A DNA stretch of 47,652 bases, from positions 1 to 47,652 of the forward strand of contig CANQYF010000001.1 of assembly GCA_947628075.1 (NCBI GenBank), in the 5' to 3' direction. Shown here one piece after another: positions 1,597 to 35,911 of this stretch (its first letter is position 1; every line of letters starts with the position of its first letter). The stretch comes from an uncultured Bacilli bacterium. GTDB taxonomy: Bacteria; Bacillota_I; Bacilli_A; RF39; UBA660. The notes beneath the pieces were generated by a model, which saw only the letters and a list, made by a program, of their open reading frames with translations, did not search any database and was not told the DNA's origin. Both the position numbers and the translations under genes were made by a program.

Positions 1597-1800
1597 TCCT
1601 AAAACAAAAAGAATGATACTTAAGGAGTGCCTAAGCACGGTACCATCCTTTTTTTTACTTTAATTATTATAACGGCTTTGCCGGTATTTATTAAATACTC
1701 TCTGAAAGTAGATTCATTATATTTAAATTATTAGTTTTCACCATCCACTAACTCTCTTTAAATCTCTATATAATTACTATTCTTTCGTCATCAATTTAAT
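1597..1800 (-). promoter_or_regulatory. T-box leader controlling serS (inferred UCU Ser specifier)
   Basis: The minus strand reads TTGATGACG (K-turn), AGAGAG, GGTGAAA (distal loop), GAA-TCT-A (specifier context), then AAAGGATGGTACCGTG (T-box motif, about 1636-1652). A GTGC-TTAG-GCAC hairpin and T-run follow before the RBS. Confidence 0.8.
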
Positions 1801-1822
1801 ATTATTATTTATTATGTTTTAA

Positions 1823-2529: not shown

Positions 2530-3738
2530 TTATTCATCCACTATTGAATTCAATTGAACAATAAAAGGATGACTAGCGGTCCCTTCACCATCAATAATCT
2601 CTACAAATTTATTTAAATAGACAACAGGATAAATATTTCCCCTGTTAGTAACCTCAATTTTGAATATATTATCTTTATTTTCTACAAACCAAACATCATA
2701 AATATTTTGTATCTCTCTTCCATATCTTGTCATTGTCCAAGCATTTGTTAAAGTTTCTAACATCCAATTATTGGTTTGATATAAAGACGTTACACCAGCA
2801 GCTAGGTAGAAATCACTTAAATATGGAAGTCCAACGATTAAATCTCCCGTAGTTTTAATCATACTTTCTTGATAATAAACATCTTCTCCGAATGAATTAT
2901 ACGCCACATCGATGATACTTTTTACTAGCCCTTGATTCCAATTCATTTCTTCAAAATAATTATGGTAATCTCTTAATCCTCCATATTCTTGTTCATTAAG
3001 GAAACCACCATTTAACATATCCGCTATATCAGCAGCATTGCTAGTACCACCAAGTCCCCATATTACTTCTTCTACTTCAGCATTATTATGCCATTTAAAA
3101 CTTTTAGTACCACCCATGTCATAAGGATAAGCTTTTATTACTTTTATAAGATTATCACCAGTTATACCAATTATGCGATACATATATTTTTCTTTTTCTA
3201 ATACACAATCTGCTGATGACTTTGTACTAATACAAATATAATTATTTACTTCATTACTTTTACCAACAAAACGATATTCAAGCTCATCACCATCAAAACT
3301 TTTTTCCAAACCAGCTTGATTAGAATTAACTAAATCTTTAGCTGTACCCCCATTAAATTTACCATTGCTTTTATCAAAATATAAATAACAATAGCAAGTT
3401 TCATCTGTTTCAACAATAGCAGTTTTATTTGCTTCATCAAATTTTAAAATATTTTCTTTAACTATTTTATTTCCATCTTTATCAAGACACTCTGATTTTA
3501 ATTTATTAAGTGTATAACCATCTGGCCAAATATCAGATGACGATTCTTCATAAGTATTACTATTAATATCGGTTTCTAACATAAGAGCAAAAACGTTATG
3601 GTTAACTACATTGTTATTTTGAAGTTCATCTAACTTTTGATTTTTATTTACATTCAATAATGAAAATATTGTTATGGCTATTCCCAATACTATTATTGAT
3701 ATGATAATTAATATCTTTTTATTTTGTTTTTTAACCAT
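2530..3738 (-). CDS. hypothetical N-terminally membrane-anchored extracellular protein
   Basis: 402 aa with a Lys-rich N-terminus plus one TM helix (KKILIIISIIVLGIAITIFSLL) and no lipobox Cys. The rest is hydrophilic. No family recognised with certainty. Confidence 0.6.
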   Translation of the reverse strand: MVKKQNKKILIIISIIVLGIAITIFSLLNVNKNQKLDELQNNNVVNHNVFALMLETDINSNTYEESSSDIWPDGYTLNKLKSECLDKDGNKIVKENILKFDEANKTAIVETDETCYCYLYFDKSNGKFNGGTAKDLVNSNQAGLEKSFDGDELEYRFVGKSNEVNNYICISTKSSADCVLEKEKYMYRIIGITGDNLIKVIKAYPYDMGGTKSFKWHNNAEVEEVIWGLGGTSNAADIADMLNGGFLNEQEYGGLRDYHNYFEEMNWNQGLVKSIIDVAYNSFGEDVYYQESMIKTTGDLIVGLPYLSDFYLAAGVTSLYQTNNWMLETLTNAWTMTRYGREIQNIYDVWFVENKDNIFKIEVTNRGNIYPVVYLNKFVEIIDGEGTASHPFIVQLNSIVDE

Positions 3739-32706: not shown

Positions 32707-32892
32707 TTAATTATGATTTCTTTTATGTGAATTTTTGATGCCTTCTTCTTTTTTTATTCTTCTTTCAACTCCAGGTTTAATATGAAATTTTCTTTTTTTA
32801 AGTTCTGAAGGGACTCCACTTCTGGCAACTTTAACTTTAAATTTCTTTAAAGCACTATCAATATTACCATTTTGTACTACAACCTTGGTCAC
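32707..32892 (-). CDS. rpsU: 30S ribosomal protein S21
   Basis: 61 aa, basic, with ALKKFKVKVARSGV...KKRKFHIKPG. GTG start 7 nt after GGGAGGG. Confidence 0.92.
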   Translation of the reverse strand: MTKVVVQNGNIDSALKKFKVKVARSGVPSELKKRKFHIKPGVERRIKKEEGIKNSHKRNHN

Positions 32893-32924
32893 AATTTCGC
32901 CCTCCCTTCGCTTTACTAAAGCAT

Positions 32925-32953
32925 ATTATAGCACTTACCATCCCATTTGACAA
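32925..32953 (-). promoter_or_regulatory. promoter of the rpsU operon
   Basis: The minus strand reads TTGTCA (32953-32948), a 17-nt spacer, then TATAAT (32930-32925). Confidence 0.6.
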
Positions 32954-33006
32954 CAAAAAAAGCCAAATAATCGAAAATACTAGGCAAAAAATTGTCAATT
33001 AATTAT

Positions 33007-33162
33007 TCATTTACAATAATTTTTTGACACAACTCTTTTTATAGTTGACCCTAGACTTCTGCCATAGTTAAAAATTGATTTCATGAAATTAATAACAGCA
33101 TCCACAAGTGCTCCCGACAAACTTCCACCTTTTACTAATAGTAAATCTTCATCTTTTAACAT
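33007..33162 (-). CDS. double-glycine-leader bacteriocin precursor B (51 aa; 38-aa cationic mature peptide)
   Basis: Hand translation gives MLKDEDLLLVKGG|SLSGALVDAVINFMKSIFNYGRSLGSTIKRVVSKNYCK. AGAAGGAGG RBS lies 5 nt before the ATG. TGA stop. Not in the ORF track (<60 aa). Confidence 0.75.
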   Translation of the reverse strand: MLKDEDLLLVKGGSLSGALVDAVINFMKSIFNYGRSLGSTIKRVVSKNYCK

Positions 33163-33174
33163 TTTTACCTCCTT

Positions 33175-33324
33175 CTAACATTTATTGGGATTTATATAAC
33201 CATCCCAAACTCCTATTAAAAAAACTGCAATTCCAGTTAATACACCAGTTATAAAACCAGCTAATTTAATACTGAAAGCTCCTCCTACTACATTCATCAT
33301 TTCTTCATTATTTAATACTTTCAA
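33175..33324 (-). CDS. double-glycine-leader bacteriocin precursor A (49 aa; 34-aa hydrophobic GxxxG-rich mature peptide)
   Basis: Hand translation from a TTG start 7 nt after AGAGGAGG gives MKVLNNEEMMNVVGG|AFSIKLAGFITGVLTGIAVFLIGVWDGYINPNKC. Not in the ORF track. Confidence 0.72.
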   Translation of the reverse strand: MKVLNNEEMMNVVGGAFSIKLAGFITGVLTGIAVFLIGVWDGYINPNKC

Positions 33325-33337
33325 TTTATTACCTCCT

Positions 33338-33763
33338 CTACTTAAATAATTCTAAAATGTATTTAATAACTTTTTGCTTTCCATAATAAATAGTAACTTC
33401 TCCTACTTCATTATTAAAAGCTTTACCATCTATAGTTAACTCAACTGTTTGCCAAACTTTATTATCAACTATTTTATATTCGCCAAAATCTTTAATTTGA
33501 TAACTTATCTTTGTCTTATTAAATTCTAATGTCTTACCTTTTTTGATTTTATCAGAGAGTGAGTTTTCTATTTCAATTGTCAGTATTCCATCATTTATAA
33601 AACCATAACAAGTTATCTTTTGATTAATCGAAGTAAAAAAAGCTAAAAAGACTAAATAGAAAATTAAAAATATAATACCAACAATAATTATAAAAAAGTT
33701 AATCTGATATAATTTTTGTAATTTGTCATAGTTAATTTGATAATAATTCATTCTTGACTCCAA
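33338..33763 (-). CDS. miniature HlyD/ComB-like bacteriocin export accessory protein (putative)
   Basis: 141 aa with one N-terminal TM helix and a beta-rich domain. The end, EVGEVTIYYGKQKVIKYILELF, resembles the C-terminus of LcnD/ComB-type accessory proteins. It overlaps the ABC gene stop. Confidence 0.45.
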   Translation of the reverse strand: MESRMNYYQINYDKLQKLYQINFFIIIVGIIFLIFYLVFLAFFTSINQKITCYGFINDGILTIEIENSLSDKIKKGKTLEFNKTKISYQIKDFGEYKIVDNKVWQTVELTIDGKAFNNEVGEVTIYYGKQKVIKYILELFK

Positions 33764-35792
33764 TCTCTATAATTTTTGAAAAAGCTTTTGTTTGATTTTT
33801 ATGCGATATATAGATAATTGTTTTATCTTGAAAATATTCTCGAATATTTTTGATAATTTTACTTTCTAATTTATAATCAACCTCACTTAACGCTTCATCT
33901 AAGATAATAATATTACTTTTTTTAAGTAGTCCTCTTGCTAATATGATTCTTTGCTTTTCACCTCCTGATAAATTTTTGGAATGTGGTTCGATTAATGATT
34001 CATAACGCATTGATTTTTTATTAACTATATCTTCGATTGCACATAATTTGCATATTTCCAAAAATTTATTTTCTTGCACATTACGTCCTAGCAAAATATT
34101 TTCTTTAATTGTTCCTGTAAAAAGTTTTTCATCTTGAGAAACATATAAAATATTTTTTCTTATCGTATTAAGATTTAAATCTTTAATATTTTTATTATCA
34201 ATAGTTATTTCTCCTTTTATATTATCAAACTCTTTATATAACAATTTACAAATAGTGCTTTTCCCAACTCCTGATGGTCCATTTAATAAAACGTGCTCTT
34301 TATCATTAATATTTAAATTTACATTCTTTAAAATATAATCATAATTATTATAAGAGTAACTAACATCTAAAAATTTTATATTTCCTTTTAAATTTAATTT
34401 AGCTTCTTCATTTTTTTCTTCTTCAATATTAATAAACTCTGCTATCTTTGCAAATGTTGCTTTAATATAATTAAATTTTGGTAGTAAATTAATAATATTT
34501 TGTATCGGATCAATACAATAAGATAATAAGAAGTTAAAGGTAAAAAGATCAACCAAATTTATAAGTCCCTGATAAATACACCAAAACCCATAAGAATTTA
34601 TAACAAATAAAGAACATTCGATAAAGAAACTTTTGCCTAAATTTGTTAAATTCACAAAGCTATTAAATTTAAAATTATTATATAAAAATCTCGCTAGATG
34701 CCTTTCTATTTTTTGTAATATATTATCTTTAATGTTTAAATTTTTAATACTTTCAAGCATATCGATTTGCTCAGTTATTAAGCTATTAAAATCAGTTTGA
34801 TAATCGACATTTTCTAAAACCTTTAAATATATAATTTTGCTGATTATAAAACCATAAATTATATAAAATATTAGGAAAATCAATAATATAAAAAACAATT
34901 TTTCATTAATTATATATAAGATAACCATAGATGCCAACATTAAAAGTGAATCAAGGATACCGGAGACAAAAATTTCCGAAAATAAATTTTTGATATTAGC
35001 AAGTTCGCCAATTCTCGTTACTATTTCTCCTGTCATTCGACTTTTAATATTTTTTAAAGGGAGTGAAAAAATATGCTCTATAAAATCCGGATAAATATAA
35101 GTATCAACTAAATTACTTAAATGATTTTCATAATAATCTCTTATAAAATAGATAAATATTTTAATCAATACTAAAGTTCCAAAAGCAAAGACAATATATT
35201 TTAAATAATTTAAATCAATACTTAATGCATTACTTCCAACTTTTAAATAATAACTACTAATAATAGACAATATAATCCATAGTATACTTGTTATTACTAT
35301 TTTTAAAACAAGAAACTTTTCCTTTTTAATAATGTTTAAAAATAGTTTACTAATGGTTATGCCTTTAGCCATTTTAATTATTGGTACTCGTGGATGCATT
35401 AAAATTAAATGTCCTGTAAATATGTTAGCAAAATCATCTATTAACATTTTTTTATCACCAACGCCTGGATCCATTAAATAAACAACGTTGTTTTTAACAC
35501 ATTTTATAACAACAAAATGTTCTAGTCCATTTTTCATAATTACATGTGCAATTAAAGGAAATTTTAAAGTTGACGATTTTAAATTTTTTTCTAATATTCC
35601 CACTGCATCAAATCCCCACTTTTTTAAAGCGTTAACTATATGATAAGCAGTTGTACCTTTCATATCAGTATTTGTATCTTCTCTTAGTTTTTCTAAAGAT
35701 ACATAACCGCCGTAATACATAAAAATCCATTCCATTGCACAGACACCACAATCTTTTGAATCTCTTTGAATGACCGGTTTAATATGTTTCAT
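33732..35792 (-). CDS. bacteriocin-processing ABC exporter with N-terminal C39 peptidase domain
   Basis: C39 catalytic Cys context QRDSKDCGVCA and His context EHFVVIKC...YLMDP. It has a six-TM region, Walker A GPSGVGKST, signature LSGGEKQR, and Walker B IIILDEA. Start set at the ATG (MKHIKPV) after AGGGAGG. The track start at 35807 is the RBS itself. Confidence 0.92.
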   Translation of the reverse strand: MKHIKPVIQRDSKDCGVCAMEWIFMYYGGYVSLEKLREDTNTDMKGTTAYHIVNALKKWGFDAVGILEKNLKSSTLKFPLIAHVIMKNGLEHFVVIKCVKNNVVYLMDPGVGDKKMLIDDFANIFTGHLILMHPRVPIIKMAKGITISKLFLNIIKKEKFLVLKIVITSILWIILSIISSYYLKVGSNALSIDLNYLKYIVFAFGTLVLIKIFIYFIRDYYENHLSNLVDTYIYPDFIEHIFSLPLKNIKSRMTGEIVTRIGELANIKNLFSEIFVSGILDSLLMLASMVILYIINEKLFFILLIFLIFYIIYGFIISKIIYLKVLENVDYQTDFNSLITEQIDMLESIKNLNIKDNILQKIERHLARFLYNNFKFNSFVNLTNLGKSFFIECSLFVINSYGFWCIYQGLINLVDLFTFNFLLSYCIDPIQNIINLLPKFNYIKATFAKIAEFINIEEEKNEEAKLNLKGNIKFLDVSYSYNNYDYILKNVNLNINDKEHVLLNGPSGVGKSTICKLLYKEFDNIKGEITIDNKNIKDLNLNTIRKNILYVSQDEKLFTGTIKENILLGRNVQENKFLEICKLCAIEDIVNKKSMRYESLIEPHSKNLSGGEKQRIILARGLLKKSNIIILDEALSEVDYKLESKIIKNIREYFQDKTIIYISHKNQTKAFSKIIEIGVKNELLSN

Positions 35793-35911
35793 TTTTCCTC
35801 CCTTCACTAATTACTTACGTCTTTTTTTTACCTTTTCCTTTTTTTTAAATTTAATTTATGAAATTTTTTATACATAACAACATAATATTTAGTAGTAATG
35901 AGGAGAGAGAT

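Follow-up and report, generated by a model that had tools for sequence, protein, structure and literature searches.

The standard example of two peptides that need to meet on a target membrane is provided by class IIb, or two-peptide, bacteriocins. The question of how such partners are brought together is raised by a locus in the 47,652-nucleotide stretch of DNA analyzed here as a whole (hereafter the window; contig CANQYF010000001.1, positions 1 to 47,652, of GenBank assembly GCA_947628075.1, from an uncultured Bacilli bacterium of the RF39 lineage, UBA660). The locus contains two adjacent genes for short peptides, called A and B below, and each predicted mature peptide has a single cysteine (Cys) close to its C terminus. 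Do these two residues serve one common function, and if so, do they join the two chains? Comparison with related loci showed that both Cys are kept or lost together, and a disulfide between A and B is to us the most likely mechanism for the paired residues, with a probability somewhat better than even.

The locus consists of four genes arranged head to tail on the minus strand, for an exporter, an accessory protein, peptide A and peptide B, with a gap of 12 nucleotides between the A and B genes. The features of the two peptides are as follows.

33175..33324, minus strand: peptide A precursor, 49 amino acids, TTG start 6 nucleotides after GGAGG, TAG stop
33280..33324, minus strand: A leader, 15 residues, ending in GG
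33178..33279, minus strand: A mature peptide, 34 amino acids, hydrophobic
33199..33213, minus strand: A GxxxG motif, G38-V-W-D-G42 of the precursor, invariant among 39 A peptides
33178..33180, minus strand: A Cys codon TGT, last residue (...NPNKC), six residues after GxxxG
33007..33162, minus strand: peptide B precursor, 51 amino acids, ATG start, TGA stop
33124..33162, minus strand: B leader, 13 residues, ending in GG
33010..33123, minus strand: B mature peptide, 38 amino acids, amphipathic, net charge +5
33049..33063, minus strand: B GxxxG motif, G34-R-S-L-G38 of the precursor, with G34, G38 and C50 invariant in alignments A1 and A2
33013..33015, minus strand: B Cys codon TGT, penultimate residue (...KNYCK), eleven residues after GxxxG

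Written as leader plus mature peptide, A translates as MKVLNNEEMMNVVGG + AFSIKLAGFITGVLTGIAVFLIGVWDGYINPNKC and B as MLKDEDLLLVKGG + SLSGALVDAVINFMKSIFNYGRSLGSTIKRVVSKNYCK. Both leaders follow the usual E-L/M...V/I-x-GG pattern and contain no Cys, and the translations bore out the first-pass annotation, which had described exactly one Cys per mature peptide, last in A and penultimate in B. With a single Cys per chain, the only bridge possible is an intermolecular one. Cys makes up 1.05% of the residues in the long open reading frames (ORFs) of this genome, and the chance of finding one Cys per peptide, each within the last two residues, is about 2e-4 for a single pair. In single-chain AlphaFold2 models, A forms a helix over residues 6-44 followed by the non-helical tail NPNKC (mean predicted local distance difference test score, pLDDT, of 81), and B forms one long helix over residues 14-46 followed by the non-helical tail KNYCK (mean pLDDT of 75), which places both Cys in the tails, 4-5 residues beyond the helix ends. 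All five glycines and the Cys of A fall on one helical face, and the hydrophobic moment of B is 0.5-0.7.

We then asked what is preserved among relatives. A six-frame search detected B in 36/36 genomes of the genus, and in one genome each of a second family of the same order and a third family of the class. The first-pass annotation had proposed to check whether homologous pairs keep the two Cys, and they do so: A and B were adjacent and both Cys-bearing in all 39 loci retrieved, and the Cys were near-invariant across the family. Adjacency also held in every locus where both peptides could be read. This conservation stands out from a background of rapid divergence, as the median pairwise identity of the mature peptides in the genus is 38% for A and 35% for B, with lowest values of 12-16%; the only invariant columns of each mature peptide are the GxxxG glycines and the Cys (39 A peptides and the B alignments). 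What is kept is the distance of the Cys from GxxxG rather than its place at the extreme C terminus. Thus, the spacing is GxxxG-x6-C in A and GxxxG-x11-C in B in 120 of 134 Cys-bearing pairs, while Cys is the last residue in only 4/39 A and 8/37 B peptides and is followed by 0 to 4 residues in A, with as many as 9 in certain genera, and by 0 to 9 residues in B. Covariation of the spacing between A and B gave no usable signal, as the combination of x6 with x11 dominates. Among the database matches listed, the Cys site was kept in 120/120 and 144/145 B homologues. The B family returned 185 word-index matches and 461 clusters at 50% identity, all of them unnamed or called 'hypothetical protein'. 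In some B precursors the Gly-Gly at the leader end is replaced by Ala-Gly (...IYAG) or Cys-Gly (...KACG) (loci L136, L137 and L153 of genus g36, and L261 of genome G630).

We next looked at loss of the Cys. Both peptides were read in 149 genomes, of which 140 have both Cys, 8 have neither, 1 has one pair of each kind and none is discordant; put differently, no genome with a Cys-bearing B has an A without Cys (0/140). The 8 Cys-less genomes fall in 7 lineages, listed here with their genus handles.

G298 (g132): congener G748 keeps both Cys
G257 (g75): five congeners keep both Cys
g43: G153, and one of two tandem pairs of G090
G120 (g36): tails otherwise kept, both Cys sites substituted, that of B by Gly
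G259 (g26): both Cys absent
G246 (g70): A tail GYLNPAHKRR on the contig of B, A head on another contig
G597 and G675 (g281): B Cys replaced by Thr or Ser

To count changes we used a maximum-likelihood tree of 146 exporter C-terminal domains, which requires 7 changes for the Cys-less state; well-supported branches make no fewer than 6 of these unavoidable. The two peptides changed state together in 6/6 well-supported independent contrasts (two-sided sign test, p = 0.031), and in 7/7 when weakly supported branches were included. In G090 (L121, L249; minus strand, 1352-1925), the A-B pair is duplicated in tandem. One pair keeps both C-terminal Cys, and in the other both tails are truncated and an internal Cys has newly appeared in each chain (A ...GVFCGFFGK, B ...AGICETIF...). 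As both kinds of pair occur side by side, the coupling belongs to the individual pair rather than to the genome.

Comparison of the sequences thus gives good support to a functional coupling between the two Cys. If they had independent roles, they should be lost independently, which is not seen; a direct A-B link is favored over homodimers or unrelated roles, and the most economical interpretation is contact between the two residues. In the first-pass annotation, the bridge had been proposed to be either an A-B disulfide or one within homodimers; the coupled loss speaks for the former and against the latter.

Several other accounts of the pattern were considered and rejected. Decay of the Cys-less loci does not explain it, as their exporter ORFs are open, and of full length (684-699 amino acids) in the four alignable genomes without both Cys, and the accessory gene is retained in most of them (G257, G120, G259, G153 and G090). 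The accessory protein was discarded as a thiol-transfer partner because its single Cys is not conserved, 9/33 sequences having none at all. The exporter was discarded likewise: only the catalytic Cys of its C39 domain is universal, and no Cys column tracks the state of the peptides. A shared third-party Cys is therefore unlikely.

Some loci show further variation. In G298 (L117), both Cys-less tails are rich in aromatic residues (A ...KHVWSPYYGD, B ...FKYKFGYYY), which may be a non-covalent replacement for the bridge. An extra peptide with a Gly-Gly leader is encoded upstream of A in L039 (G018; 3197-3346), L154 (G259; 1196-1351), L254 (G597; 1126-1254) and L104 (G062; 1181-1342). That of G018 is A-like and ends in ...KKAPRCP, giving three Cys-bearing peptides in the locus, and that of G259 has one Cys next to Cys-less A and B.

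A mechanism can be proposed that would account for these features; its helix packing, its disulfide and the antibacterial activity are inferred from sequence. Judging from its domain content, the exporter, a C39-type ATP-binding cassette (ABC) transporter, would cut each precursor after Gly-Gly and then export the peptide. Mature A would form a hydrophobic, glycine-faced transmembrane helix and mature B a cationic amphipathic one, and the two would pack in parallel with their invariant GxxxG motifs as the contact, in the way suggested for bacteriocins of the lactococcin G type. Each helix would end in a short flexible tail with a single Cys at a fixed distance from GxxxG. With parallel packing both tails should leave at the same end of the pair and could meet, whereas antiparallel packing should send them to opposite ends. 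The thiols would thus be brought together to form one A-B disulfide, with a predicted monoisotopic mass of 7760.15 Da for the heterodimer. The bridge would fix a 1:1 stoichiometry and the register of the helices, and would hold the partners together on dilution. On balance, the locus probably makes a two-peptide, class IIb-like membrane-active agent with covalently joined chains.

Some observations count against the A-B disulfide or weaken the pattern that favors it. On an ideal helical wheel, the Cys of B lies 120-160 degrees off its own GxxxG face, a placement that might weigh against the bridge. The weakest B matches were examined deliberately, and this choice of genomes enriches Cys-less B, the state of A being then an independent reading; in the G246 lineage, the A tail was read beside a contig end. 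No match to Thioredoxin_4 (DsbA/BdbD-like), DsbB or VKOR was found in five genomes of the genus, of which four are 94-95% complete. Together with the anaerobic gut habitat, this implies that oxidation would be spontaneous and driven by proximity, or would proceed by thiol exchange; the missing Dsb-type genes weaken the case for enzymatic oxidation, not for spontaneous oxidation. Finally, the coupled loss also fits with both thiols serving one shared partner or one shared modifying enzyme.

These last two possibilities deserve closer weighing. Both thiols might be needed without being bonded to each other, acting jointly on a third party, either by chelating a metal or by engaging the same target-cell receptor through a mixed disulfide or docking. 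Such joint action would explain the invariance and the coupled loss just as well, and it would need no oxidizing machinery, in keeping with the missing Dsb-type genes. We nevertheless consider it unlikely, as the tails contain no conserved His or Cys partner, the two kinds of pair in G090 indicate that each pair is a self-contained unit, and the fixed distance between Cys and GxxxG is most simply read as the Cys meeting each other. It appears quite improbable that one enzyme modifies the sulfur of both Cys, for example by S-glycosylation or attachment of a lipid. Glycocin F has a sugar S-linked to its C-terminal Cys (PMC4786598), and loss of a shared enzyme would by itself produce coupled loss, but no glycosyltransferase or other modifying gene was found in or beside any of about 150 loci, and enzyme loss leaves the Cys-bearing and Cys-less pairs of G090, side by side, unexplained. 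In addition, the residues that follow the Cys differ in number and identity, arguing against a terminal recognition motif, and A and B lack Cys for the two nested intramolecular disulfides that glycocins need. A-A and B-B homodimers, or Cys that stabilize each peptide separately, are about as improbable, if not a shade more so. One free Cys per chain could form homodimers too, and the G018 locus, with two A-like peptides and one B, all Cys-bearing, would suit them; this arrangement predicts independent loss, however, and loss was coupled in 7/7 lineages with no discordant A. In disulfide-linked pairs of identical helices, the complementary design of A and B, one hydrophobic and the other amphipathic, would also go unused.

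Whether the pair is a bacteriocin at all is a separate matter, which we judged on its own and not as a share of the readings of the Cys. It might instead be a conserved secreted or membrane heterodimer that serves in signaling, in the release of nutrients from neighbors or the host, or in a step of sporulation, a real possibility although a doubtful one. It draws strength from the distribution of the locus. B was present in 289/301 genomes of an order-wide sample, and in 382/401 genomes and 200/203 genera of a sample of the family, small-genome gut Bacilli; it was not found in 27 other families of the class. The hosts are uncultured gut and rumen bacteria known from metagenome-assembled genomes, and their reduced size (0.6-1.6 Mb) points the same way, as does the fixed site of the pair beside rpsU in the genus. 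Of the twelve genomes without a B match, six have no rpsU either, a sign of gaps in the assembly, two break off at a contig end, and four have other genes upstream of rpsU. These four, L125 (G122), L126 (G171), L127 (G231) and L129 (G301), are fairly complete, have unrelated genes at that position and no B match anywhere, showing that the near-universal locus can be lost. The locus is clade-specific, vertically inherited and nearly core, which is unusual for a bacteriocin, and near-universality in the family combined with the lack of an immunity gene in the genus is likewise atypical; neither an immunity nor a regulator gene was found in the window. Conversely, every structural hallmark of class IIb is present, several genera have a gene for a small membrane protein at the position of a class IIb immunity gene, and the peptides diverge fast, as weapons and their targets do. 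Bacteriocin function appears plausible, with the near-core distribution as a reason for caution.

In several other genera, a third ORF of 44-55 amino acids starts 13-16 nucleotides before the B stop, at the following loci.

L059 (G069), ~1650-1815, minus strand: third ORF
L102 (G091): third ORF
L136, L137 and L153 (G085, G127 and G274), 1638-1811: third ORF
L111 (G089), 1644-1781: third ORF
L112 (G072): third ORF, ending in Ser

Its product begins with a membrane helix, continues with a B-like GxxxG-x11-C module and, apart from that of G072, ends in Cys (e.g., ...KLGEQLGTNIRGILEGKMC). It is a candidate immunity protein that could serve as a membrane-anchored decoy of B. The third ORF is absent from the genus of the window. 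A different ORF of the window, at 32864..32998 and the only one in the gap between B and rpsU, was rejected as an immunity gene: L002 shows no conservation of its N-terminal half, and the ORF runs over the promoter and start of rpsU.

The remaining genes of the locus and its neighbor are the following.

33732..35807, minus strand: peptide-cleaving ABC exporter, 691 amino acids, N-terminal C39 cysteine peptidase, membrane domain and ATPase
33338..33763, minus strand: accessory protein, 141 amino acids, one membrane helix and a beta-rich outer part, overlapping the exporter stop
32707..32892, minus strand: rpsU (ribosomal protein S21), fixed downstream neighbor, outside the system, marking a conserved chromosomal place

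The exporter, directly upstream of the peptides and 49-67% identical across the genus, matched the Pfam families Peptidase_C39 (1e-31), ABC_membrane (4e-23) and ABC_tran (4e-29), and scored 385 bits with TIGR01193 (bacteriocin_ABC), under the cut-off of 524 bits. The accessory protein gave no family match in Pfam and curated-model searches; it occupies the same position in most loci, with 35-52% identity. A search for related loci returned no match for it, and only one distant relative of the exporter. The accessory gene is missing from L117 (G298), L251/L253 (G246) and L040 (G030), in which A comes immediately after the exporter stop. Such loci include some with the peptide Cys and some that lack them, so the system of those genomes can do without the accessory protein. 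The order exporter, accessory gene, A, B, rpsU and yqeY is kept across the genus, and in the window the gap from B to rpsU is 114 nucleotides. The identity of rpsU rests on a match of the homologous gene in L002 to Pfam Ribosomal_S21. A scan for promoters and terminators found sites no more numerous than in shuffled sequence.

The end of B in the window required attention, as this gene is the only one of 37 in the genus to end with TGA (33007-33009). Translation of this codon under genetic code 4 was rejected, because TGA acts as a stop genome-wide and because in L002, a relative with 84% identity, a TAA closes the B gene at this very position. In this genome, of 26.1% G+C, TGA ends 65/570 long ORFs, with a median read-through of 6 amino acids, and it is a true stop. 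Database entry P0003, a 98%-identical copy of B, reads it as Trp (code 4) and has a false 9-residue tail. The Mycoplasma models of gene callers can mis-translate short AT-rich contigs of this lineage.

If the A-B disulfide is real, partners joined before they reach the membrane would represent a new structural solution to the partner-finding problem, the orientation of the helix pair would be fixed as parallel, and a simple design rule would be available for stabilizing two-peptide antimicrobials. The seven natural Cys-less lineages provide ready-made controls. The family is large, with its 461 clusters, present in about 95% of the sampled genomes of a common gut lineage and wholly unannotated, and it bears on how uncultured bacteria with reduced genomes compete or feed in the gut. 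A broader picture, rather less likely than not, is offered as a tentative proposal. The pair might be an obligately covalent, disulfide-stapled heterodimer and a vertically inherited near-core trait of at least 200 genera, serving as a membrane-active tool that defines the lineage, one use being to draw nutrients from neighbors, rather than as a weapon that can be had or not; some genera might protect themselves with a membrane-anchored B copy that captures A through the same GxxxG-x11-C module.

How does the locus compare with known systems? The defining features of class IIb (PMC2850506) are largely present: two adjacent peptide genes in one operon, GxxxG (or AxxxA/SxxxS) in both peptides, and double-glycine leaders of 15-30 residues with a dedicated ABC transporter, the B leader being slightly short at 13 residues and cleavage being predicted. 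The immunity gene expected in the same operon is absent from the window, with a candidate in other genera. As in lactococcin G, enterocin 1071 and plantaricins EF and JK, the peptide genes are adjacent and encode Gly-Gly leaders, and their operon also includes a dedicated C39-ABC exporter together with an accessory gene, an arrangement known from lactococcin G. Further likenesses are GxxxG in both chains, helical cationic peptides of 30-40 residues, and a parallel pair as in the helix-helix model proposed for lactococcin G (PMC2850506). There are also differences. The accessory protein has 141 amino acids here versus several hundred, no immunity gene accompanies the peptides in the window, and the locus is near-universal and vertically inherited where class IIb loci vary between strains. 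The peptides have no significant match to the curated models: A scored 20.8 with PF10439 (Bacteriocin_IIc; cut-off 27.1), 19.3 with TIGR03949 (21.5) and 16.5 with NF038034 (37), and B reached 18.1 bits versus a cut-off of 37, the matches of both lying mostly in the leader. Each chain has one invariant Cys whose evolution is coupled to that of its partner, whereas the review has non-covalent association only. It makes no mention of cysteine and uses 'covalent' for cyclic bacteriocins only (PMC2850506), in agreement with the first-pass statement that described class IIb bacteriocins associate non-covalently; our literature searches found no counter-example, that is, no report of a disulfide-linked or otherwise covalent two-peptide bacteriocin.

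Other classes share single traits with the locus. Glycocin F (PMC4786598) is likewise a secreted bacteriocin, exported by a C39-ABC protein, with a functionally essential C-terminal Cys, but this Cys is S-glycosylated by a cluster-encoded glycosyltransferase, and its one chain contains two intramolecular disulfides; the four genes of our locus include no transferase, and the peptides cannot form the two nested disulfides of glycocins. The YGNGV box and N-terminal intramolecular disulfide of pediocin-like class IIa bacteriocins are absent. The C-terminal aminovinyl-cysteine of lanthipeptides does not apply either, as there are no decarboxylase or dehydratase genes and the Cys is seldom the last residue. 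Among class IIb bacteriocins, chains with Cys, some near the C terminus, occur in ABP-118/salivaricin P, lactacin F and brochocin C, but with two Cys per chain, so that an intramolecular bridge is possible, versus one here. Lactococcin B, an unmodified class II bacteriocin of one peptide, has a single internal Cys that reportedly must be reduced for activity, a precedent that would suit thiols of A and B that act without being bonded to each other. Distinctin, an antimicrobial peptide of frog skin, pairs two unlike helical chains through one intermolecular disulfide, like the model proposed for A and B; it differs in its animal origin, in the lack of two Gly-Gly-leader precursors, and in its unrelated sequence and biosynthesis. 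From its sequence features, we file the locus as one that would work like a class IIb bacteriocin, in a variant form outside every described sequence family.
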